Position numbers and translations under genes: made by a program. This document shows, in pieces, positions 1,554 to 15,719 of a stretch of DNA of 47,722 nucleotides (the stretch's first letter is position 1; each line of letters opens with the position of its first letter). A model generated the notes under the pieces. It saw only the letters and a program-made list of their open reading frames with translations. It was not told the origin of the DNA and made no database searches. Source of the stretch: Gemmatimonadota bacterium (lineage in GTDB: Bacteria; Gemmatimonadota; Gemmatimonadetes; JACCXV01; JAHWKZ01). The stretch lies in the NCBI GenBank assembly GCA_035249945.1, contig DATFFS010000253.1:1-47722 (forward strand). Reading direction: 5' to 3'.

Positions 1554-2534
1554 GTGAGGCGCGTGCTGGTGACGGGTGCCGCCGGGTTCATCGGGTCCTG
1601 GTTGACCGAGCGGCTGCTCGAGCGGGGCGACGAGGTCGTGGGTCTCGACAACTTCGATCCCTTCTACGACCGGGACATCAAGGAGCGGAACCTCGCGGCC
1701 GCGCACGGGAGCGCCGCCTTCCGGCTGGTGGAGGGCGATCTGCGGGAGAGAGCGGACGTGTTCGCGCTGCTCGCCGACGGTGCCTTCGACGCGGTCGCGC
1801 ACCTCGCCGCCAAGGCCGGCGTCCGGCCTTCGCTGGCCGATCCGGCGGGCTACTACGATACGAACCTGATCGGCACCGCGAATCTTCTCGAAGCGATGCG
1901 CGAGTCCGACTGCCGCCGACTGGTGTTCGCATCGTCGAGCTCGGTCTACGGGAACAACCGCAAGGTCCCGTTCCACGAGGACGATCGGGTGGACGCTCCG
2001 ATCTCGCCCTATGCGGCGACCAAGAAAGCCGGCGAGGAGCTATGTCACGTATACCACGCCGTGCACGGCTTCTCGATCCTCGCGCTGCGCTTCTTCACCG
2101 CGTACGGCCCGCGCCAGCGCCCCGAGATGGCGATCCACGCGTTCACCCGCCGGCTCTTCGCGGGCGAGCCCATCCCGGTCTTCGGCGACGGCTCCATGGA
2201 GCGCGACTTCACGTACATCGACGATGTCGTGGATGGAGTCGCGGCCGCCGTGGACCACGTCACCGGGAACGAGACGTTCGACGTCGTGAATCTCGGGGAA
2301 TCCGAGCCGATCCGCCTTTCTCGCCTGGTGGCGGCTCTGGAGGCGGCCACCGGCCATGAAGCCGTGATCGATCGCCGCGAAATTCCCCCCGGCGACGTCG
2401 AACGGACCTTTGCCGACGTCTCCCGCGCCCGCCGCCTGTTGCGATACGAGCCGCGCGTCGGGCTCGACGAAGGTCTGCGGAGGTTCGTGGAGTGGTATCG
2501 GCGAGAGTTGCTGGAGCAGCCCGACAGGAAATGA
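1554..2534 (+). CDS. NAD-dependent epimerase/dehydratase (SDR), UDP-glucuronate 4-epimerase-like
   Basis: GTG start 10 nt after a GGAGG. It has the Rossmann motif VTGAAGFIGS, the YAATK catalytic motif and an FFTAYGPRQRPEMA block typical of uronate 4-epimerase-type SDRs. Confidence 0.8.
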   Translation: MRRVLVTGAAGFIGSWLTERLLERGDEVVGLDNFDPFYDRDIKERNLAAAHGSAAFRLVEGDLRERADVFALLADGAFDAVAHLAAKAGVRPSLADPAGYYDTNLIGTANLLEAMRESDCRRLVFASSSSVYGNNRKVPFHEDDRVDAPISPYAATKKAGEELCHVYHAVHGFSILALRFFTAYGPRQRPEMAIHAFTRRLFAGEPIPVFGDGSMERDFTYIDDVVDGVAAAVDHVTGNETFDVVNLGESEPIRLSRLVAALEAATGHEAVIDRREIPPGDVERTFADVSRARRLLRYEPRVGLDEGLRRFVEWYRRELLEQPDRK

Positions 2535-2610
2535 CCGGGCCGAACGGCAGAGCCCGCCTGCACGAGCGTCCTGGCGTGCCAGAGAAACCCCGTCAACGAG
2601 AGGAAAGGCG

Positions 2611-3942
2611 ATGGTCGAGAACGCGGAGCGATTGAAACGGGCGATCGAGTCGAAAGAGGCGCGGATCGGCGTCATCGGCCTCGGGTACGTTGGTCTGCCG
2701 CTGGCGCTGGCCTTCACCGATCGCGGGTTTCGGGTGCTGGGCTTCGACGTGGATGCCCGCAAGATCGAGCAGCTCGATCGGGGGGCCTCCTACATCCCCC
2801 ACATGAACGCGCAGCGGATCCGCAACGCCGTCGAGTCGGGCCGTCTGGCGGCGACCGGTGACTTCGAGCGCCTGTCCGAGGTGGACGCGATCGTTATCTG
2901 CGTTCCCACGCCTCTCGACGTGCATCACGAGCCCGACATGACCTACATCGTGGCCACGACGGAGGAGGTGGCCCGGCGCCTCAGGCCGGGACAGCTCGTC
3001 GTGCTCGAGTCGACGACCTATCCCGGTACAACCGACGAGCTGATGCGCGAGCGGCTCGAGGAGGGCGGCCTGATCCTCGGCCAGGACTTCTTTCTGGCCT
3101 TCTCTCCCGAGCGGGAGGATCCCGGGAACCCGAAGTTCTCGACGACCACCATCCCCAAGGTCGTAGGCGGGGTGGACGAGGTCTCGGGAGATCTTGCGGA
3201 GGCGCTCTACCGCCAGGCGATCGGCGAGGTCGTGCGGGTCTCTTCGGCGCGCGCCGCCGAGGCAACCAAGCTGACCGAGAACATCTTCCGGGCCGTCAAC
3301 ATCGCTCTCGTGAACGAGCTCAAGGTGATCTACGAGCGGATGGGAATCGACGTCTGGGAGGTGCTCGACGCCGCCGAGACCAAGCCGTTCGGCTTCATGC
3401 GCTTCAACCCCGGACCCGGCTGGGGCGGCCACTGCATTCCCATCGACCCCTTCTATCTGACCTGGAAGGCGCGCGAGTTCGGCGCGTACACGCGTTTCAT
3501 CGAGCTGGCCGGCGAGATCAATACCCGGATGCCGGAGCACGTGGTGGAACGCGTGGCGGCCGCGCTCAACGAATCGGGGAAGCCCCTCAAGGACAGCCGC
3601 GTCCTCATCCTCGGCTTGTCGTACAAGCCCGACATCTCCGACGACCGCGAATCGCCCAGCTACCGACTGATGGACCTGCTGGACGAGCGCGGCGCCGAGG
3701 TCGCCTACCACGATCCTCACGTTCCCGTGATCCACCCCAGCCGGGAGCACGGACACTGGGCGGGACTCGAGTCTGTGCCGTGGGACCGGGAGACGATCGA
3801 GTCCCAGGACGCCGTGGTGATATCGACCGATCACTCCGCCGTCGACTACCCCCGGCTCGCCGAATGGGCGCGCCTCATCGTCGACACGCGGAACGCCATG
3901 GTGGGAATCGACGCGCCAACGGGCAAGGTGTGGAAGGCGTGA
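2611..3942 (+). CDS. Nucleotide-sugar dehydrogenase, UDP-N-acetyl-D-glucosamine (or mannosamine) 6-dehydrogenase family (TviB/WbpO/WecC-like)
   Basis: ATG at 2611 is preceded by GAGAGGAAAGG. N-terminal IGVIGLGYVGLPLALAF dinucleotide fold, a GGHCIPIDP catalytic Cys block and LGLSYKPD. The upstream part of the 2410 ORF overlaps the preceding gene and is not protein-like. Confidence 0.8.
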   Translation: MVENAERLKRAIESKEARIGVIGLGYVGLPLALAFTDRGFRVLGFDVDARKIEQLDRGASYIPHMNAQRIRNAVESGRLAATGDFERLSEVDAIVICVPTPLDVHHEPDMTYIVATTEEVARRLRPGQLVVLESTTYPGTTDELMRERLEEGGLILGQDFFLAFSPEREDPGNPKFSTTTIPKVVGGVDEVSGDLAEALYRQAIGEVVRVSSARAAEATKLTENIFRAVNIALVNELKVIYERMGIDVWEVLDAAETKPFGFMRFNPGPGWGGHCIPIDPFYLTWKAREFGAYTRFIELAGEINTRMPEHVVERVAAALNESGKPLKDSRVLILGLSYKPDISDDRESPSYRLMDLLDERGAEVAYHDPHVPVIHPSREHGHWAGLESVPWDRETIESQDAVVISTDHSAVDYPRLAEWARLIVDTRNAMVGIDAPTGKVWKA

Positions 3943-4994
3943 GCGCCACGACCTACGAGTCGGCGATGGAGGACCTGCGGAGCCGGCCCCGCCGCTGGCT
4001 GGTCACGGGAGCGGCGGGATTCATCGGCTCCGGCCTCGTGCTCGAGCTGCTCGCGAACGGGCAAACGGTGATCGGGCTCGACAACTTCGCCACCGGCAGG
4101 CGCGCCAACCTGGAAGACGTGCGCGCGCGCCTCGGGGAAGACGACTGGAAGCGGTTCGCCCTGCTCGAGGGTGACATCCGCAGCCTGGACGCGTGCCGGC
4201 GCGCGTGCTCCGAAGCGGAGCTCGTGCTCCATCAGGCGGCGCTCGGATCCGTGCCGCGGTCGATCGCCGATCCCGTCGCGAGCCACGAGAGCAACGTCAA
4301 CGGCACGCTGAACATGCTGCTCGCTGCACGAGACGCGGGAGCGGAGCGGTTCGTCTTCGCTTCGAGCAGCTCCGTATATGGTGACGAGCCCAACCTGCCG
4401 AAGCTCGAGGCGCGAACCGGGCGCCCCCTGTCTCCCTACGCCGTGACCAAGGCGACCGGCGAGCGGTATGTCGAGGTCTTCCGGCATACGTATGGACTTC
4501 CGGTCGTGAGCCTGCGGTACTTCAACGTGTTCGGGCCGCGACAGGATCCCGAGGGCCCCTATGCTGCGGTGATTCCGCGCTGGATCGCCGCGCTGCTGCA
4601 GGGGAGGCCGGTCCAGATCTTCGGAGACGGCGAAACCAGTCGCGACTTCTGCTACGTGGCCAATGCGATCCAGGCGAACGTCCTGGCGGCGACGACGCGG
4701 GAAGACGCCGCCCTCGGCGAGACGTTCAACGTGGCGGTGGGGGAGCGCGCCACGCTCAACGAGTTGTTCGCTCTCTTACGCGAGCGGCTGGCACGCCACT
4801 CTCCAGACATCGGGAACGCGCTGCCGGAGTACGGTGACTTCCGTCCCGGCGACGTCCGCCACTCGTTGGCGGACGTCTCGAAGGCGGCCCGGTTGCTGGG
4901 CTACCGACCCACCCACACATTGCGCGCGGGCCTGGACGAAGCGATGGACTGGTATATCGACTCGGCCTTTGACTTGACCGACGGAGGTCTCTAG
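3939..4994 (+). CDS. UDP-N-acetylglucosaminuronic acid / UDP-GlcNAc C4-epimerase (WbpP/TviC-like SDR)
   Basis: The GTG start overlaps the upstream stop (GTGA). Motifs VTGAAGFIGS, LDNFATGRRANL, HQAALGSVPRS, PLSPYAVTK, RYFNVFGPRQDP, AAVIPRW and GDGETSRDFCYV are the characteristic WbpP/TviC pattern. The start could instead be the ATG at 3966. Confidence 0.8.
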   Translation: MSATTYESAMEDLRSRPRRWLVTGAAGFIGSGLVLELLANGQTVIGLDNFATGRRANLEDVRARLGEDDWKRFALLEGDIRSLDACRRACSEAELVLHQAALGSVPRSIADPVASHESNVNGTLNMLLAARDAGAERFVFASSSSVYGDEPNLPKLEARTGRPLSPYAVTKATGERYVEVFRHTYGLPVVSLRYFNVFGPRQDPEGPYAAVIPRWIAALLQGRPVQIFGDGETSRDFCYVANAIQANVLAATTREDAALGETFNVAVGERATLNELFALLRERLARHSPDIGNALPEYGDFRPGDVRHSLADVSKAARLLGYRPTHTLRAGLDEAMDWYIDSAFDLTDGGL

Positions 4995-5050: not shown

Positions 5051-6313
5051 ATGTCAACTCCGATTCCGCTCGAGTCCCTGCTTCGCCAGAACCCCGCTCC
5101 ACCGCAAGCCCCGGGCTCCAACGGCCAGCCCCCCCTCAACGGCAACGGCAAGCACGCGGGCCACGCCGACCCGCATGCCAGCGGCGACGGGAACGGAGTT
5201 GCGGAGATCGACCTTCCGGTCGGCCCGCCGCTGAGGTTCGAAAAGCCCTCGGATCGGATCGATCGTACGAGCCCGCGTCATACCTGGGGGAAGAAAGCGC
5301 GCTTGCTGAAGGCGTTCCTGCTGGGGCGCCCCGTGTGGGTGACCTGGCAGGTGACCTACAACTGCAATTACGGGTGTTCGTTCTGCACGTACTGGAAGAA
5401 CGATTTCAAGCCGCACGAGGAGAATTCGCTCGAAGATTTCGCTGCCGGGACCCGGAAGTTGTCGGAGCTCGGCTCGTTGATCGTATCGTTGGCCGGCGGC
5501 GAGCCGATGCTGCGCCGGGATATTCACCAGATCGTCGACATCATCGCGCGGGACCACTTTCCGTACCTGACCACTTCGGGATCAGGCATGACGACAAAGC
5601 GCGCGCGCCAGCTCTGGGAGGCTGGGCTGTGGGGCTGCTCCGTATCCATCGACTACGCGGATCCTGACAAGCACGCCGAGCATCGCGGCGTAAAGTTCGC
5701 GTTCGAACGAGCGGTGAAGGCGATCGAGCAGCTCATGGAAGCGCGCACCGATCTGTCGTATCAGCGGGTGCAGATCATCTCCGTGCTGACCGACGACAAC
5801 CTCGCCGAGATGCCGAAGCTCTGTGATCTGGCGCGACAGCTCGGCGTGTACTGGCAGGTGCAACCCTATTCGGTGATGAAGACCGGGAACGAGCGGCAGC
5901 GGCATTTGAGGGGTGCGACCGAGGTCCTGCTCGACCTCAAGGCGCGGTACCCGGAGACCTTTCACACGAACCGGCTGTATCTCGAGCGCTTCGACGAGGC
6001 GGTGAACGACGGCATTACGGGTTGCATCGCGGGACGGGCCATGTTCAACATAGACAATCAGATGGTGGTCTCCAAATGCGTCGAGTTCAATCAGACGGAG
6101 CCCTGCGGGAACCTGGGCAGCGAGTCGATGGAGACGGTGCTGGGGCGGCTGCACGAGGCCCACGCGCGGAACACGTGCACGGCCTGCTGGTACTCCTGTC
6201 GAGGAGAGGTGGAGGTCCTGTATGAGCCGCGCGGATTCCTGAACAGCATGCACAGCTTCCTATGGCAAAGTCGGCGCCAACCCGGCGTCAACGGCGCAAC
6301 GAAGGGGGATTGA
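5051..6313 (+). CDS. Radical SAM protein with a Cys-rich C-terminal (SPASM/twitch-like) region and a low-complexity N-terminus
   Basis: CX3CX2C motif (YNCNYGCSFCTYW), a GGEPMLRRD SAM-binding block, and C-terminal cysteines (GCIAGR, SKCVEF, EPCGN, CTACWYSCRGE). The first ~85 aa are P/G/N-rich. Confidence 0.85.
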   Translation: MSTPIPLESLLRQNPAPPQAPGSNGQPPLNGNGKHAGHADPHASGDGNGVAEIDLPVGPPLRFEKPSDRIDRTSPRHTWGKKARLLKAFLLGRPVWVTWQVTYNCNYGCSFCTYWKNDFKPHEENSLEDFAAGTRKLSELGSLIVSLAGGEPMLRRDIHQIVDIIARDHFPYLTTSGSGMTTKRARQLWEAGLWGCSVSIDYADPDKHAEHRGVKFAFERAVKAIEQLMEARTDLSYQRVQIISVLTDDNLAEMPKLCDLARQLGVYWQVQPYSVMKTGNERQRHLRGATEVLLDLKARYPETFHTNRLYLERFDEAVNDGITGCIAGRAMFNIDNQMVVSKCVEFNQTEPCGNLGSESMETVLGRLHEAHARNTCTACWYSCRGEVEVLYEPRGFLNSMHSFLWQSRRQPGVNGATKGD

Positions 6314-6374
6314 CCACGTCGATGTTCGGCATGTAGGATTCGGTTGACCTGATCAAAGTGGGGAGGGGGTTCTC

Positions 6375-8540
<2,166 letters not shown>

Positions 8541-8704: not shown

Positions 8705-9301
8705 CTATCTATAGAACGGGTTGACTCCGGCGGCGTGATCCGTCGTATCCACCACCCGCAGGATCTCCGGCAGGACCTCTTTCAGGCGCGTCTCGATCCC
8801 CTGCTTGAGGGTGACGTCGACGAGGCCGCACCCATGGCATCCCCCTCCGAAGCTCAGATAGACCACTCCCTCCTCGACTCCCGCCAGCTCGACGCGGCCG
8901 CCGTGCGCAGCGACCGCGGGATTGATCTCGGTATCCAGCAGTAAGCGGATCTTCTCGGCGGTCGTTCCCGTAAGATCGGTTCGGGCGCCGGAAGGGATCG
9001 CCGGCGAAGGGGCCGGGTTGGGGTTTTCGAACCGGAAACCGCTCTCGAGCAGGGTCTCCCGGTGATCCAGGCGCGCACCCCGGAGCCACCCGGCGCTCTC
9101 GCCGTCCAGCACGATCCGGAACCCATCTTCGTCCAGAATGAAGTCGTCCTCACGTACCTCGCCACTCGAGACCGCAGCGAGCCGGTACTCGAACCCGCCC
9201 TTCCCGGGACGTGCCTCGATGCGCAAATGATCCCGCGGCGGGGTCGCGCGTTCGAGCGCGGCCCGGATCTTCTCGCGCGCGGCGGGGGTGAGCTCCAGCA
9301 C
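8705..9301 (-). CDS. nfuA: Fe-S cluster carrier, NfuA-type (degenerate IscA-like N-domain plus Nfu C-domain)
   Basis: The C-terminal Nfu domain has GGGCHGCG (CxxC) preceded by INPAVAAHGGRVEL. The N-terminal half is HesB/IscA-like but lacks the cysteines. Confidence 0.85.
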   Translation of the reverse strand: MLELTPAAREKIRAALERATPPRDHLRIEARPGKGGFEYRLAAVSSGEVREDDFILDEDGFRIVLDGESAGWLRGARLDHRETLLESGFRFENPNPAPSPAIPSGARTDLTGTTAEKIRLLLDTEINPAVAAHGGRVELAGVEEGVVYLSFGGGCHGCGLVDVTLKQGIETRLKEVLPEILRVVDTTDHAAGVNPFYR

Positions 9302-9425: not shown

Positions 9426-10880
9426 ATGCCCGATTCGGGTCCCGGCCTCGCGCTCGGCGACGCGCTTCGCCGCTTCCGGCCGAGCCGCGTCCTGGTCTAC
9501 GGCGACACGATCCTCGACGACTATCTGTTCGGGCGCGCGGATCGGCTGTCTCCCGAGAAGCCAGTGCCGGTCGTCGCGTACGAGCGTCGCGACCTGTACC
9601 TGGGGGGTGCCGGCAACGTCGTGCGAAACCTCCAGGCGCTCGGCTGCGAGCCGATCCTGGTCACGGTGGTGGGAGAGGGAGACGCGGGCAACGAGTGCAG
9701 GGCGCAGCTGGCCGCGGCAGGCCTCCCACTGGACGGCCTGATCGAGGCCAAGGGCTGGTCCACGCCGCGCAAGTTGCGCGTCCACGCGGGTCAACACGCG
9801 CTGGTGCGTATCGACTTCGAGAGCCCGCGCCCCGCGGATCGCGGGGTGGAGGCAGCGCTCGAGGACGTGCTGGCCAGGCTCTCTCCGGGCTGCCAGGGGG
9901 CGATCGTGAGCGATTACCGGAAGGGTGCGGTTACGGCTGCGGGTGTCGATCGGCTGAAGCGGGCGCTGGGCGACGCTCCCGTGATCGTGGATCCCAAGGG
10001 CATCCACGCCGCGACCTATCGCGCCGCCGACTATCTGCTGCCGAACGAGCGCGAGCTGGCCGACCTGCTGGGAGGAGAATGGGACGATCCAGGAGCCGAG
10101 CGACTGCTCGAGCACCTGGGCCTCGCGGCGATCGTGTTGACGCGATCGGAACGGGGCGTGCGGCTGTTCGGGCGCGGCGCGCCCTCCGACATTCCGGCCC
10201 GCGCCCGTCAGGTGTACGACGTGACCGGCGCGGGCGATACGTTCGCGGCCGCCTTCGCGGCGTTCCTCCTCTCCGGCGAGGACGTGATGCTGGCCGCCAG
10301 GCTGGCCAACGCCGCGGCGGGGATCAAGGTGCGCAAGGTGGGCACCGCGACCGTCTCCAGAGGCGAGATCCTGGAAGAGGTGGAGCGCGGATCGGCAGGG
10401 CAGTTCAAGCGGGTCGACGCGGCCAGCGCGGCAGCCGCCGCAGCCGAGCGACGCCGGCGCGGCGAGACGGTCGTGTTCACAAACGGCTGCTTCGATCTAT
10501 TGCACGCCGGTCACATCAAGTATCTGGAGGCCTCGCGCGCGCTGGGCGATTGCCTGATCGTCGGACTCAACAGCGACGCCTCGGTAGCACGCCTCAAGGG
10601 CCCGGATCGGCCGATCCTCGACGAGACGGAGCGCTCCGAGATCCTCTCCGCCCTGGGCTGCGTCGACTATGTGGTCCTCTTCGACGAAGACACGCCCCTG
10701 TCGCTGATCGAGGCGATCCGCCCCGACGTGCTGACGAAGGGGGCCGACTACACGAGGGAAGCGGTCGTTGGCGGCGATCTCGTCGAGGAGTACGGCGGAA
10801 TCGTGGCCCGGATCGACCTGGTAGCCGGAAAATCGACTACCGGCATCATCGAGCGGATAACCGAAAGCAGAGAGGACTGA
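9426..10880 (+). CDS. hldE: Bifunctional D-beta-D-heptose 7-phosphate kinase / D-beta-D-heptose 1-phosphate adenylyltransferase
   Basis: N-terminal PfkB-type sugar kinase (DVTGAGDTF) fused to a cytidylyltransferase domain (VVFTNGCFDLLHAGHIKYL). Confidence 0.9.
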   Translation: MPDSGPGLALGDALRRFRPSRVLVYGDTILDDYLFGRADRLSPEKPVPVVAYERRDLYLGGAGNVVRNLQALGCEPILVTVVGEGDAGNECRAQLAAAGLPLDGLIEAKGWSTPRKLRVHAGQHALVRIDFESPRPADRGVEAALEDVLARLSPGCQGAIVSDYRKGAVTAAGVDRLKRALGDAPVIVDPKGIHAATYRAADYLLPNERELADLLGGEWDDPGAERLLEHLGLAAIVLTRSERGVRLFGRGAPSDIPARARQVYDVTGAGDTFAAAFAAFLLSGEDVMLAARLANAAAGIKVRKVGTATVSRGEILEEVERGSAGQFKRVDAASAAAAAAERRRRGETVVFTNGCFDLLHAGHIKYLEASRALGDCLIVGLNSDASVARLKGPDRPILDETERSEILSALGCVDYVVLFDEDTPLSLIEAIRPDVLTKGADYTREAVVGGDLVEEYGGIVARIDLVAGKSTTGIIERITESRED

Positions 10881-10884
10881 GTCC

Positions 10885-12252
10885 ATGCGCGTGGGTGTAT
10901 TCGGCGCCGGCTACGTAGGCCTCGTGACCGGGACGTGTTTCGCGGAGATGGGGAACGACGTCGTGATCCGCGACGTGGACGAGCAGAGGATCGCCGGGCT
11001 GCGCCGCGGCCAGATCCCGATCTACGAGCCCGGTCTGGAGGAGATGCTCCAGCACAACCTGGAGATGGGACGCCTGCGCTTCACGACCGATGGGCGGGAT
11101 GCCGTGAGCTTCGCCGAGGTGATCTTCGTCGCCGTCGGGACGCCGGCGGAAGAGGACGGATCGGCCGACCTGTCCCACGTGCTGGCGGTGGCGAAGGAGA
11201 TCGCACAACACGCCGACGGGCCGCGGATCGTCGTGAACAAGAGCACCGTGCCGGTGGGCACGGGCCGCAAGGTTCGCGACGTGCTCGCCGACTCCTCGCC
11301 GCACGAGTTCCTGGTCGTGTCCAACCCGGAATTCCTCAAGGAGGGATCTGCCCTCGAGGACTTCATGAAGCCCGATCGGGTCGTGGTCGGAACCGACAGC
11401 GAGAGGGCGCGTCAAATCATGCGCCGGCTCTATGCCCCGTTCATTCGCACCGGCAACCCCATCTGTTTCATGGACGTCGAGTCTTCCGAGATGACGAAAT
11501 ACGCCGCCAACGCCATGCTGGCGACGCGGATCACGTTCATGAACGAGATCGCCAACCTGTGCGAGCGCGTCGGGGCCAATGTCGACGAAGTCCGGATCGG
11601 AATCGGTTCGGACAAGCGCATCGGCCCTGCGTTCCTGTTTCCCGGTGCCGGCTTCGGCGGCTCCTGCTTTCCCAAGGACGTGCGCGCGCTGGAGCGGCTC
11701 GCCGACGAAGTAGGGTACGGGTTCCCGATCATGCACGCCGTCCACGCGGTCAACGAGGCCCAGAAGAAGGTGCTGGGAGAGAAGGTCCGCGCGCGCTTCG
11801 GCGACGATTTGACGGGCCACCGGTTCGCGGTCTGGGGGGTGGCCTTCAAGGCGCGGACCGACGACATCCGCGAGGCACCCGCCCTGGTCCTGGTCGAGGA
11901 CCTGCTGGCCGCCGGTGGCGAGGTCGCCGTATTCGATCCCGAAGCCATGGACAACGCCCGGCGCGTCCTCGGCGATCGGGTGACCTATGCCGGGAGTGCC
12001 CACGGGGCCCTCCATGGGGCCGACGCGCTCGTGGTGGTCACGGAGTGGAACGAGTTCCGGTTCCCGGACTTCGAACGCATGCGCAAGGAGCTCAAATCGC
12101 CGGTGGTGTTCGACGGGCGCAACCTGTACGACCCGCGCGCCATGTCGGAGCTCGGCTTCGAGTACTTCTCGATCGGCCGTCCGAGCTGGCGGGCCGGTGC
12201 TGAGCGCTCGAGCCCTTCGGTCGCGGCGGAGCTGGCCGGGGAGCAAGGCTGA
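10885..12252 (+). CDS. ugd: UDP-glucose 6-dehydrogenase
   Basis: [28 protein letters not shown], and [11 protein letters not shown] with the catalytic Cys; typical length of 455 aa. Confidence 0.9.
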
Positions 12253-13247
12253 TGCGGATCCTGGTCACCGGGGCAGCGGGGTTCCTCGGATCCCATCTCT
12301 GCCGGCGGCTCCTCGCCGAGGGCCACGAGGTCATCGGCATGGACAACTTCGTCACCGGCCGACCCGGCAACCTGTCGCCGCTGTCCGAGAGCCGGAGCTT
12401 TCATTTCGTCCACCACGACGTCACCAACTTCGTCTATGTGGACGGCCCGTTGGACGCGGTAATGCACTTCGCCTCTCCCGCGAGCCCGATAGACTATCTC
12501 GAACTCCCGATCCAGACGCTCAAGGTCGGCTCGCTGGGAACCCACAAGACTCTCGGCCTCGCCAAGGCCAAGGGGGCCAGGTATTTCCTGGCATCGACCT
12601 CCGAGGTCTACGGCGACCCGCTGGTCAATCCCCAGCCGGAGTCCTACTGGGGCAACGTCAATCCGGTCGGTCCACGCGGGGTCTACGACGAGGCGAAGAG
12701 GTTCGCCGAGGCGATAACGATGGCGTATCATCGCTATCACGGCCTCGACGTGCGCATCGTCCGGATCTTCAACACCTACGGCCCTTCCATGCGGCCCCAC
12801 GACGGGCGCGTGGTCTCGAACTTCATCCGGCAGGCGCTCCAGGGTGAGCCGCTGACGGTGTATGGAGACGGTTCTCAGACCCGGTCGTTCTGCTACGTGG
12901 ACGATGAGATCGATGGGATCTATCGATTGCTGACATCGGACTTCGTCGGTCCCATGAACATCGGCAACCCGGGCGAGATGACCGTCATGGAACTCGCGCG
13001 TCTGGTGGTGGAGCTGACCGGCACCTCGAGCGGCATACAGGCCCGGCCCTTGCCCCAGGACGACCCCCGCGTACGGCGGCCGATGATCGATCGCGCGCGC
13101 GACGTGCTGGGCTGGGAGCCCCGCACCTCCCTCGCCGACGGTCTGACGAGGACGATCGAATACTTTCGCGGGCTGGCGGAGAGCGAGCTCGCGGCTCCCG
13201 CGGTGACGCGGTCCGGAGCGTCCGCCGGCGGGACCGGGTCCCGGTGA
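12252..13247 (+). CDS. uxs: UDP-glucuronate decarboxylase (UDP-xylose synthase)
   Basis: The start overlaps the ugd stop (TGATG). Motifs [51 protein letters not shown] and the position directly after ugd support the call. Confidence 0.9.
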
Positions 13248-13867
13248 CGCGCCTGGCCCTGGGGATCGCGGGCGGGACCGGGTCCGGCAAGACGACCGTC
13301 GCCTCGAACATCGTCAAGCGCCTGGCGCTCGACTCGATAACCGTCATCACGATGGATTCCTACTACCGGGATCTGGCGGATCTTCCCCCGGCCCGTCGAG
13401 ACGAGACCAACTTCGATCACCCGGACTCGGTCGAGCAGGACCTGTTCGTGCGGCACCTGCGGGAGCTGAAGGCCGGACGGCCGATCGAGCAACCGGTCTA
13501 CGATTTCGCGCGCCACGTGCGGACCGGGGACACGGTGACGATCGAGCCGCGGGACGTCGTCATCGCCGAGGGGATCCTCCTGTTCCACGTGCCGGAGATC
13601 CGCGAGGCGCTGGATATCCGGATCTTCGTGGACACCCCGGCGGATGTCCGGCTGCTGCGCCGCATAACCCGGGACATCCGAGATCGCGGGCGGACGCTGG
13701 AAAGCGTGGCCGAGCAGTACGTGCGCACCGTGCGCCCGATGCACGAGGAGTTCGTCGAGCCGTCCAAGAGGTACGCGGACGTCATCATTCCCGAAGGCGG
13801 ATACAACGATATCGCCATCGACATGGTGGCCAGCCGGATTCGCTTCATGCAGGAGGTCTACGGTTGA
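13244..13867 (+). CDS. udk: Uridine kinase
   Basis: GTGA overlap start. P-loop [12 protein letters not shown], then DSYY, NFDHPDS and [12 protein letters not shown] motifs. Confidence 0.9.
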
Positions 13868-14838
13868 AGAGAGCGCTGATCACCGGTATCACCGGTCAGG
13901 ACGGTTCGTACCTCGCCGAGTTCCTGCTGGCCAAGGATTATGAGGTCCACGGCATCGTCCGTCGGGCATCGACCGAGAAGTTCGACCGCATCTCGCACAT
14001 AAAGTCCGAGCTGCACCTTCATCAGGCGGACCTGCTGGATCAGCGATCGCTGGTGCTGGCGATCGAGGCATCCCGGCCCGCCGAGGTGTACAACCTGGCC
14101 GCACAGTCGTTCGTGCCGACCTCGTGGGCCCAGCCGATCCTGACTGGCGAGTTCACCGGGCTCGGCGTCACGCGCGTCCTGGAGTCGATCCGACAGGTGG
14201 ACACCTCCATCCGCTTCTACCAGGCATCGTCCAGCGAGATGTTCGGCAAGGTGCGGACTTCGCCGCAGAACGAGTCCACGCCGTTCCATCCGCGCAGCCC
14301 GTACGGCGTAGCCAAGGTCTACGGACATTTCATCACCGTGAACTACAGGGAATCCTACGACATGTATGCGGTCAGCGGGATCCTCTTCAATCACGAGTCT
14401 CCGCGCCGTGGTCTGGAGTTCGTGACCCGCCACGTATCCGACGGAGCGGCGCGCATCGCGCTCGGCCTAGCGGAAAAGCTGCCGATCGGGAATCTCGACG
14501 CCGAACGAGACTGGGGATTCGCGGGCGACTACGTGGACGCGATGTGGCGCATGCTGCAGCGTCAGGAGCCGCGCGATTACGTGATCGGCACCGGCATCCC
14601 CCACTCGGTCCGCGATGTGTGTCGCGTCGCATTCGAGCACGTAGGCCTCGACTGGGAGCTCTACGTGGAAGTCGACCCGACGCGATTTCGGCCCGCGGAG
14701 GTCGACCATCTGACCGCCGACTACGAGCGCGCGCGGGAGGAGCTCCAGTGGCAGCCCGAGGTAGGGTTCGAGGAGCTCGTCAAGATGATGGTCGACGCAG
14801 ACGTGCGACGGCTGAAGGGCGAGGTGGTGACGGCGTGA
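13864..14838 (+). CDS. gmd: GDP-mannose 4,6-dehydratase
   Basis: The TTG start overlaps the udk stop. ALITGITGQDGSYLAEFLL, YQASSSEMFG, SPYGVAKVY and ILFNHESPRRG are characteristic Gmd blocks. Confidence 0.92.
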   Translation: MKRALITGITGQDGSYLAEFLLAKDYEVHGIVRRASTEKFDRISHIKSELHLHQADLLDQRSLVLAIEASRPAEVYNLAAQSFVPTSWAQPILTGEFTGLGVTRVLESIRQVDTSIRFYQASSSEMFGKVRTSPQNESTPFHPRSPYGVAKVYGHFITVNYRESYDMYAVSGILFNHESPRRGLEFVTRHVSDGAARIALGLAEKLPIGNLDAERDWGFAGDYVDAMWRMLQRQEPRDYVIGTGIPHSVRDVCRVAFEHVGLDWELYVEVDPTRFRPAEVDHLTADYERAREELQWQPEVGFEELVKMMVDADVRRLKGEVVTA

Positions 14839-15719
14839 GTGCTCCCGTGGCCGCTCCTCCGGAGGCCGCCCCGGATACTCTGCAGCGGGCCGAAGAGGTG
14901 CTGGCCGGCGAGGCCGTTCCCGCCGGGCTCGTCGACTTCCACAGCCATCTCGTTCCCGGCGTCGACGATGGCGCGCGCGACCTCGGAGAGGCGATCCGGG
15001 GTGTGGATACCTTGGCTGCGGAGGGCGTCCGTCACGTGCTTACGACACCCCATATCGACGCCAGCACGATCGCCCGGACGGAACTCTTCGAGCGCCAGCA
15101 GCGCGAGGTCGAGGAGGCGTGGTTCCGTGTAGTGGACGCTTGCGTGGACCGCGAGCCCCGCCTGAGCTTCCATCTGGGGCGCGAAATCCTCCTCGACACG
15201 GCCTCTCCGGAGCTCTCCGATCCCCGCGTCCGGCTCAACGGGGGTCCCTACGTGCTGGTCGAGTTCCCGCGGTTGAATCTACCGGTGGGCTCCGAAGATG
15301 CCCTCGGCCATATCGCCGGGCTCGGGTACCGACCGGTCGTGGCTCACGTCGAGCGATACCTCTATCAGGGAGATCCGGTGCCTCTCTGGGACGAGTGGCG
15401 GCACGCCGGCGCCGCGCTCCAGGTGAATGCGGCGTCCTACGTGGGCCGCTACGGCGCCAGCGCCCGTGAGCTCGCCTGGCACGCGCTGGAGCTGGGATGG
15501 GTGGACCTGGCGGCCAGCGACTACCATGCGCGCGGACGGCCGTGGATCACCCAGGCGCGAGAGGAGCTCCGCTCAGCGGGCGGCGACGTCCAGGACGCGG
15601 CGCTGTTCGACGGCAATCCGCGACATCTCCTCCGCGGCGAGCCGCTGGAAGCCGTGGAGCCGCTGGAGCAGCGGCGCAGCCCATGGAGCCGGATGCGGAA
15701 ATACTTCCGCGGACGCTGA
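14835..15719 (+). CDS. PHP-family protein-tyrosine phosphatase, CpsB/YwqE (capsular polysaccharide biosynthesis) type
   Basis: GTGA overlap start. DFHSHLVPGVDDGA, LTTPHI, VAHVERY and SDYH metal-ligand motifs. The part of the 14124 ORF that lies inside gmd is a shadow frame. Confidence 0.8.
   Translation: MSAPVAAPPEAAPDTLQRAEEVLAGEAVPAGLVDFHSHLVPGVDDGARDLGEAIRGVDTLAAEGVRHVLTTPHIDASTIARTELFERQQREVEEAWFRVVDACVDREPRLSFHLGREILLDTASPELSDPRVRLNGGPYVLVEFPRLNLPVGSEDALGHIAGLGYRPVVAHVERYLYQGDPVPLWDEWRHAGAALQVNAASYVGRYGASARELAWHALELGWVDLAASDYHARGRPWITQAREELRSAGGDVQDAALFDGNPRHLLRGEPLEAVEPLEQRRSPWSRMRKYFRGR

Follow-up and report, generated by a model that had tools for sequence, protein, structure and literature searches.

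A twitch-type radical SAM family coupled to Tes-like genes in soil bacteria and its possible role in membrane-spanning lipid synthesis

Introduction

Few terrestrial palaeoclimate proxies are in wider use than branched glycerol dialkyl glycerol tetraethers (brGDGTs). Which bacteria produce them beyond a few Acidobacteria, and which enzymes build them, remain questions; bacterial homologues of Tes have only been hypothesised to take part. On a stretch of 47,722 nucleotides (nt) from a Gemmatimonadota bacterium (NCBI GenBank assembly GCA_035249945.1, contig DATFFS010000253.1; the whole stretch is called the window below), a Tes-like gene is directly preceded by a second radical S-adenosylmethionine (SAM) gene, which encodes a protein of 420 amino acids (aa). 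What is this second enzyme, does it belong with the Tes-like protein, and on what might the two act?

We find that the 420-aa protein represents a Tes-associated radical SAM family that is previously undescribed and distinct from Gms, Grs, Gmm and Ted. Together with the Tes-like gene it forms a compact two-gene unit in soil phyla never before linked to such lipids. We suggest, with a probability of roughly 55%, that it is a catalytic radical SAM enzyme and a dedicated partner of the Tes-like protein, most likely acting on the same membrane-lipid substrate.

Results

The two radical SAM genes are a conserved pair

The surroundings of the gene were surveyed in one genome per GTDB species. Relatives were present in 409 genomes and 80 loci were examined, 26 with at least 68% identity to the window protein and 54 with 42-50%. 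The close loci come from Gemmatimonadota and Eisenbacteria (Eiseniibacteriota); 22 of them are informative, having more than 100 nt of sequence downstream, and the other four end within 50 nt. A Tes-like gene (70-95% identity) lies directly downstream on the same strand in 22 of the 22 informative loci. Likewise, Verrucomicrobiota-type metagenome contigs, labelled so through a near-identical protein (P0051) that its source names Ca. Udaeobacter, carry the same pair with a 4-bp overlap, as does a further lineage, L093. In the window the two genes lie on the same strand, 61 nt apart, as the first-pass annotation of this DNA had recorded. Its idea of a two-enzyme radical SAM module is borne out by the informative close loci and the Verrucomicrobiota-type contigs. 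We found neither of the two things that would speak against such a module, a pairing that is not conserved or a match of the 420-aa protein to a characterised family.

The pair is the sole content common to the Gemmatimonadota, Eisenbacteria and Verrucomicrobiota loci; nothing else of the window is shared. Both genes are ~70-75% identical between phyla, which would fit transfer as one unit. The two appear to be inherited, and probably horizontally transferred, as one cassette. A consensus scan of the spacer region gave one promoter-like match (6310-6339) and no terminator-like site on the plus strand of the 61 nt. An identical 420-aa protein, with the same start and stop, is called on two other public contigs, and on both the next gene is the same 721-aa gene. 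Furthermore, at least 10 metagenome studies of soil and rhizosphere contain the sequence.

The family is compact: of 1.84 billion cluster representatives searched, 214 match it at E ≤ 1e-30. Its homologues number 403, and the closest among the 120 listed are from Gemmatimonadota metagenome-assembled genomes. One of the listed proteins, P0042 (387 aa, 68% identical, on a 1.9-kb contig), bears the source label 'Halobacteriales archaeon'; its identity to Gemmatimonadota proteins and the tiny contig make a binning error the likely origin of that label.

The upstream gene encodes an unnamed radical SAM enzyme with a twitch domain

The 420-aa protein belongs to Pfam Radical_SAM (PF04055; 68.7 bits against a gathering threshold of 29.5). 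In an alignment of 16 homologues with 41-89% identity to it, on which all statements of invariance rest, both the cluster motif CNYGCSFC (C105-x3-C109-x2-C112), which had already been pointed out together with the open reading frame (ORF), and the SAM-binding motif AGGEP (A148-G-G-E-P152) are invariant. Of the six C-terminal cysteines on which the first-pass annotation had based an auxiliary Fe-S domain, five (C325, C343, C376, C379 and C383) are invariant; the cysteine of its 'EPCG' motif, C352, gives way to Leu or Val in other lineages.

An auxiliary domain of the SPASM or twitch kind had been proposed, and profile and fold point to twitch. SPASM domains have seven cysteines in the arrangement CX9-15GX4C...CX2CX5CX3C...C, hold two auxiliary clusters and match the SPASM hidden Markov models (PF13186/TIGR04085). 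The protein has only five conserved cysteines, C-x17-C...C-x2-C-x3-C, and the SPASM model matched neither its full length at E ≤ 0.01 nor its C-terminal 143 residues at E ≤ 10; these 143 residues matched no model of any family at E ≤ 10. A twitch domain is a truncated SPASM domain with cysteines on either side of a beta-hairpin, a helix, further cysteines and one auxiliary cluster. This layout, as in BtrN, SkfB and MoaA, is found in motifs, model, profile and fold: a hairpin (331-341, strands 331-334 and 339-341) is predicted between C325 and C343, and a helix (360-372) ahead of C376, C379 and C383. A profile of the family aligns to the sporulation killing factor maturase SkfB (PDB 6EFN) through the twitch domain (E = 7.9e-16), with C325 and C343 flanking the hairpin and the last three cysteines matching those of the SkfB C-terminal cluster. 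The top Foldseek matches of the structural model are SkfB, BlsE, SuiB, CteB, DesII, PqqE, MoaA, BtrN and anSME. Because five cysteines are too few to ligate two clusters fully, the predicted twitch domain most likely holds one auxiliary Fe-S cluster and a spare cysteine.

The twitch fold and the likeness to SkfB might suggest a maturase of RiPPs (peptides made by the ribosome and modified post-translationally) that acts on an unrecognised small precursor peptide. The absence of a precursor ORF had been noted before and stands: no free-standing small ORF fits the spacer on either side (56 nt upstream, 61 nt downstream). Moreover, the loci of the different phyla have no conserved small gene in common beside the pair, and no RiPP recognition element (RRE) domain was found in the protein. 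We consider this role already largely refuted and scarcely credible.

No named family claims the protein, in agreement with the first-pass annotation. Beyond Radical_SAM it passes no curated family cutoff. NCBIfam gave 48 matches, each to the N-terminal core of a SPASM/twitch-class enzyme and far below its cutoff; the best is AhbD (TIGR04545), 88 bits against a cutoff of 500 and covering model positions 2-168 of 339. The HpnH model (TIGR03470) likewise matches only the core, with 49 bits against 225, and the adenosyl-hopene transferase HpnH was rejected on this count. Matches to MoaA, PqqE, AhbD, NirJ and HpnH being partial, confined to the core and far below cutoffs, we rejected these cofactor maturase roles as well. 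Pfam shows no B12-binding domain (PF02310) in the protein. The methylase role was rejected on that absence, as was membership of the Grs/Gmm/Ted/HpnP/R class, which carries a cobalamin-binding N-domain of this family. An earlier suggestion that the enzyme adds methyl groups is thus unlikely to hold, since there is neither a B12 domain nor any similarity to methylases.

The profile also reached very large outgroup proteins (P0311, P0324, P0331, P0338 and P0349; 1034-1493 aa) with 2-3 tandem SPASM/twitch-type domains. Fusions to Tes among such long multi-domain matches were considered and rejected: they consist of generic SPASM radical SAM units in tandem, without Tes, and hence provide no Rosetta-stone evidence.

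The lineage-specific N-terminal extension is translated

The first ~85 residues had been described as disordered and rich in P, G, N and A. Our data agree: these four amino acids make up 42% of residues 1-85 and 22% of the remaining protein, and AlphaFold2 predicts disorder for residues 1-73, with a predicted local distance difference test (pLDDT) score below 50 against ~90 for the core. The extension has no Pfam match. Its motifs PIPLESLL and LPxGPP are kept within Gemmatimonadota and differ in Verrucomicrobiota and Eisenbacteria, and the whole extension is missing from the 42-50% identity clade. The conserved motifs, in-frame indels and substitutions biased to the third codon position indicate that it is translated.

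An alternative start codon had been said to be lacking, which is correct for ATG; other in-frame start codons do exist (TTG, codon 85; GTG, codons 95 and 97). Starting there would delete the invariant K81, K82 and W96. Two of these residues lie in a basic amphipathic helix (78-90) in which R84 and A88 are nearly invariant too, and which may contact the membrane or a partner.

The Tes-like partner is a modified relative of the archaeal enzyme

The Tes-like protein is a full-length homologue of the tetraether synthase GDGT-MAS (7TOL), to which it aligns over residues 146-625 (E = 2.8e-66). GDGT-MAS has a rubredoxin site (C9X2C12X20C33X2H36), an N-terminal [4Fe-4S] cluster bound by C73, C77, C80 and a His, the radical SAM cluster, and a C-terminal [4Fe-4S] cluster with Met439 and Tyr459. 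Of these, long and short Tes-like forms alike keep the radical SAM motif, the cysteines of the C-terminal cluster, the equivalents of Met439 and Tyr459, which serve C-C coupling, and the rubredoxin CX2C..CX2H. The site at which GDGT-MAS forms the substrate-sulfur intermediate thus appears to be retained. Within the rubredoxin motif they have a 22-aa insertion. The three cysteines of the N-terminal cluster are replaced by LH(D/N)HGSST in all forms examined; the lost site lies at residues ~198-208 of the window's Tes-like protein, and the loss is seen in the orthologues of L001, L002, L013, L087 and L089 as well. The long forms end in a ~90-aa helical extension.

Among the 120 matches listed for the Tes-like protein, ~80 are close relatives of 663-680 aa with 73-78% identity, and those named by their source are all Acidobacteriota or Aminicenantes. 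Acidobacterial Tes-like proteins begin ~50 residues later than the long forms. In a neighbour-joining tree of the shared core, short and long forms are sister clades.

The long forms carry near their N-terminus a peptide, FDTSSFAIPDRRLNPNGNAR in the window's Tes-like protein, that is confined to the clade with the partner gene. The pattern [FY]D[TLV]S[SA][FL]..PD..L.P.G is present in 37 of 37 long forms by inspection (26 of 37 by a loose pattern) and in none of 82 short forms. This raises the main rival to a lipid-directed enzyme, namely that the 420-aa protein is directed at protein: it would dock on or modify the Tes-like protein, for instance at this peptide, as a maturase or obligate subunit. 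SPASM/twitch radical SAM enzymes are mostly modifiers of peptides and proteins, and the best match here, SkfB, is a RiPP maturase. Furthermore, the loci of the short forms, which lack the motif FDtsSFxxPDxxLxPxG, also have no twitch gene nearby, and both proteins of the pair gained N-terminal extensions in the same clade. That said, peptide and partner gene mark one monophyletic clade, so that their co-occurrence counts as a single evolutionary event. Locus L092 carries the peptide with no partner gene nearby. The motif contains no cysteine, no RRE domain is detectable in the putative modifier, and the canonical Tes proteins beside distant family members have no such peptide. Nor is the motif disordered in a monomer model of the partner (pLDDT 71-81), although that AlphaFold2 model is poor overall (mean 53). 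Taking both sides together, we hold a protein substrate to be doubtful. L092 itself (GCA_975852785.1, CDLCZL010000066.1, 4272-8692) is syntenic with the Verrucomicrobiota-type locus L002, and an opposite-strand methyltransferase gene fills the upstream position.

A few distant relatives adjoin canonical Tes in lipid gene clusters

The 54 distant loci belong to Planctomycetota (mostly Phycisphaerae), Anaerolineales, Tectomicrobia, Auribacterota and others, and encode proteins of 330-350 aa in which all five C-terminal cysteines are kept. A Tes gene of canonical size adjoins the family member in four of these loci, directly upstream in L036, L057 and L077 and divergently in L064. The three that were scored (L036, L057 and L064) reach 566-578 bits on the Tes equivalog model NF045702, above its cutoff of 450, and keep C-x3-C-x2-C at the position of the N-terminal cluster. 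The same three loci hold a CDP-alcohol phosphatidyltransferase gene, joined by myo-inositol-1-phosphate synthase in L036 and L057 and by a ceramidase-like gene in L064. Three of the four Tes-adjacent distant loci are thus phospholipid head-group clusters. With another gene order, another Tes subfamily and a lipid context, this is an association independent of that in the close clade.

The neighbour survey of the distant clade gave no dominant partner. The commonest neighbour occurs in 7 of 56 loci: a B12-radical-SAM-like but degenerate protein of ~460 aa, encoded directly upstream and weakly similar to PhpK, BzaD, AprD4 and HpnJ; the one sequence inspected, from L081, has no CX3CX2C. Such genes lie at L081 5188-6582 and L006 6617-7999 and in L037, L039, L040, L045, L067 and L079, and are often preceded by a gene of the mannitol dehydrogenase family.

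Genes around the pair

The features of the pair and its flank are given in Table 1. The window is chromosomal. Its GC content is lowest at 6001-8000, where it is 0.63; the remaining 2-kb bins lie at 0.64-0.72. An Rfam scan of the window gave no match, hence no riboswitch was detected.

Table 1. Coordinates of the gene pair, its parts and the convergent NfuA-type gene, numbered along the window.
Feature	Position	Strand	Description
Twitch-type radical SAM gene	5051..6313	+	420 aa; Pfam Radical_SAM 68.7 bits; ORF and translation
N-terminal extension	5051..5275	+	residues 1-75; predicted disordered, P/G/N/A-rich, lineage-specific; motifs PIPLESLL and LPxGPP
Basic amphipathic helix	5282..5320	+	residues 78-90, KKxRLxxAF; precedes the core; predicted helix (AlphaFold2)
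Radical SAM core	5330..5875	+	CX3CX2C at 5363-5386; AGGEP at residues 148-152; Pfam match at residues 100-260
Twitch-type auxiliary-cluster domain	6011..6226	+	G-C325, beta-hairpin, C343, helix, C376-x2-C379-x3-C383
Spacer	6314..6374	+	61 nt; G-rich ribosome-binding site GGGGAGGGGG ahead of the Tes-like start
Long-form bacterial Tes-like radical SAM gene	6375..8540	+	721 aa; NF045702 325 bits; Zn_ribbon_HMPTM
N-terminal peptide motif	6465..6524	+	Tes-like residues 31-50, FDTSSFAIPDRRLNPNGNAR; only in the clade with the partner gene
NfuA-type Fe-S carrier gene	8705..9301	-	convergent with the Tes-like gene; Pfam Fe-S_biosyn and NifU, TIGR03341

The NfuA gene is syntenic in most of the sampled Gemmatimonadota loci. 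A homologue (48% identity) lies divergently beside the Acidobacteriota-type Tes-like genes (L087 6117-6716, L088 6115-6714 and L089 6099-6698). NfuA is the probable cluster supplier of the multi-cluster Tes-like enzyme, and its position would fit an aerobic soil organism that has to supply several Fe-S clusters. In the Verrucomicrobiota- and Acidobacteriota-type loci, a Pterin_4a-family gene (~110 aa, N-terminal CIPCRGG) directly follows the Tes-like gene (L002 11686-12027, L092 8360-8692, L087 9203-9538, L088 9169-9498 and L089 9151-9483); tblastn found no homologue of it in the window.

A sugar-nucleotide/capsule locus (1554-4994 and 9426-15700) encloses the pair. It holds two epimerase/dehydratase genes and genes for a TviB/UDP-ManNAc-dehydrogenase-like protein, a TviC-like epimerase, HldE, UDP-glucose dehydrogenase, a UXS-like protein and CpsB; Wza lies just beyond, and the rest of the window consists of housekeeping genes. 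Could the enzyme then modify a sugar nucleotide or polysaccharide of a capsule or extracellular polysaccharide locus, in the manner of BlsE or DesII, with the Tes-like link incidental or both proteins serving a non-lipid pathway? Its gene starts 56 nt downstream of same-strand genes for the TviC-like protein and an NDP-sugar dehydrogenase, with HldE, UDP-glucose dehydrogenase, CpsB and Wza in the vicinity; the top fold matches include BlsE and DesII, and glycosyltransferase genes lie within ~5 kb in L001 and L002. However, sugar genes accompany the pair only in Gemmatimonadota, and not in Eisenbacteria, Verrucomicrobiota, L093 or the Acidobacterial Tes-like loci, and the similarity to BlsE is limited to the generic core (E = 3.6e-5). 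With the sugar context confined to one phylum, we regard such a role as improbable.

Discussion

A proposed lipid substrate shared with the Tes-like protein

The pairing with a Tes-like gene, kept in soil bacteria of at least three phyla, makes the twitch radical SAM enzyme a candidate for a step in bacterial membrane-spanning lipid synthesis that has no enzyme assigned to it. There is precedent: the genes of Gms, Grs and Gmm lie in clusters with tes, and two radical SAM enzymes with auxiliary clusters, Gms and Mss, work on lipid tails. The four distant relatives beside canonical-size Tes and the C-terminal cluster site kept by the partner also speak for such a role. In cultured Gemmatimonadota, moreover, iso-C15:0, which has been proposed as the substrate for tail-to-tail coupling, ranks among the major fatty acids. 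As the best reading of the sequence evidence, the enzyme would perform Tes-coupled tailoring, or act as a co-synthase, on the tails of a membrane-spanning lipid. Motifs, fold class and gene linkage were observed; that the substrate is a lipid, in which order the two enzymes act and what type of reaction takes place are inferred from them.

Several observations weigh against this. The Tes-like partner scores 325 bits on NF045702, and its orthologues in L001 and L002 ~320 bits, below the equivalog cutoff of 450. Three Acidobacteriota-type loci, with Tes-like proteins 77% identical to that of the window, have no twitch gene within 7 kb, and the long-form locus L092 none within 14 kb. Of the 54 loci in the distant clade, 50 are without a Tes gene within 10 kb. 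In Gemmatimonadota the pair is surrounded by sugar-nucleotide genes, and a lipid-binding domain or hydrophobic pocket has not been demonstrated in the protein. Finally, in the literature searched, bacterial Tes homologues are only hypothesised to act in lipid synthesis and none has been tested experimentally. The Acidobacteriota-type loci and L092 indicate that the twitch enzyme is an add-on to a module of Tes-like, NfuA and Pterin_4a genes and not a universal requirement of it.

If the enzyme does act on lipid tails, its standard SAM-cleaving [4Fe-4S] site would start radical chemistry, and an acyl or alkyl tail might have a hydrogen abstracted from one of its unactivated carbons. Two outcomes can be envisaged. 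The auxiliary cluster may accept an electron, with a desaturation-type result as in BtrN, anSME and DesII, or it may hold a carbon radical for the formation of a C-C bond, as a bridge or a second coupling. The second course has been shown for Tes and proposed for Gms and Mss.

A broader and more tentative proposal is that the cassette is the genetic basis of membrane-spanning lipids, of the iso-diabolic-acid or brGDGT/brGMGT (branched glycerol monoalkyl glycerol tetraether) type, in aerobic soil lineages that are abundant and uncultured: Gemmatimonadota, Ca. Udaeobacter-type Verrucomicrobiota and Eisenbacteria. The twitch enzyme, perhaps recruited through the N-terminal peptide of its partner, might then carry out a reaction unassigned in bacteria: it could couple fatty-acyl tails a second time, bridge them or desaturate them independently of oxygen. 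Should the cassette make such lipids, the list of proxy sources would grow longer and radical lipid chemistry would gain a new type of enzyme. Should the enzyme modify its partner protein instead, one radical SAM enzyme would be maturing another, which is rare.

Comparison with known enzymes

By sequence profile and by fold, the closest characterised protein is SkfB, with which the family shares the cysteine-flanked hairpin and the C-terminal cysteine triad. Identity is ~20%; the protein has neither the peptide-recognition N-domain nor a precursor gene, and it stands beside a Tes-like gene, not in an skf operon.

Among lipid-tailoring enzymes Gms, the glycerol monoalkyl glycerol tetraether (GMGT) synthase, calls for comparison, and a bacterial Gms orthologue would make the H-shaped bridge of membrane-spanning lipids. 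Like Gms, the window protein is a SPASM/twitch-class radical SAM enzyme with a predicted auxiliary Fe-S site, encoded next to a tes homologue; bacterial gms genes, too, are reported to cluster with tes, and AhbD, the best NCBIfam match here, is the closest characterised relative of Gms. Gms, however, is similar to AhbD over its full length (reported E ~1e-79), has a ~100-aa helical N-domain (COG4001) that forms a lipid pocket, and carries 7-8 SPASM cysteines for two auxiliary clusters. The window protein has five C-terminal cysteines, a disordered N-terminus (residues 1-73) that matches no family and in which COG4001 is absent, and an AhbD match restricted to the core. Furthermore, the bacterial Gms proteins reported are ~45% identical to archaeal Gms, and the listed homologues of the family include a single archaeal-labelled one, P0042. 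Judged by the published descriptions and the AhbD model, which serve here in place of a direct alignment, all three structural hallmarks of Gms are missing and only the clustering with tes is shared, too little for membership. A Gms orthologue is therefore very unlikely.

Grs, Gmm, Cgm/Pgm and Ted are also tailoring radical SAM enzymes that cluster with lipid genes and act on Tes products, but they carry a B12-binding domain. Mss of Thermotoga and Thermoanaerobacter is a bacterial radical SAM enzyme with a presumed auxiliary cluster that couples fatty-acid tails in anaerobes without Tes; its homologues are defined by E ≤ 1e-50 to Tmari_0825 or WP_129545148.1 and a length of at least 400 aa. 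Compared by description only, our protein differs in its ~335-aa core and, in the close clade, in its constant company of a Tes-like gene; the named sources among its 120 listed homologues include no Thermotogota and no Firmicutes.

The dehydrogenases BtrN, anSME and DesII share the twitch/SPASM fold class, with 14-18% identity in structural alignments. In these enzymes the auxiliary cluster near the active site accepts an electron from the substrate radical, which makes them a plausible mechanistic analogue, although their substrates are small molecules or proteins unrelated to lipids.

No partner radical SAM enzyme of this type has been described for bacterial Tes homologues in the literature covered, to which the published accession lists of bacterial 'Gms' did not belong. 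Papers on TrsS offered no system description. The building and tailoring of membrane-spanning lipids by radical SAM enzymes is a known theme; what is new is a twitch-type family genetically coupled to Tes homologues.

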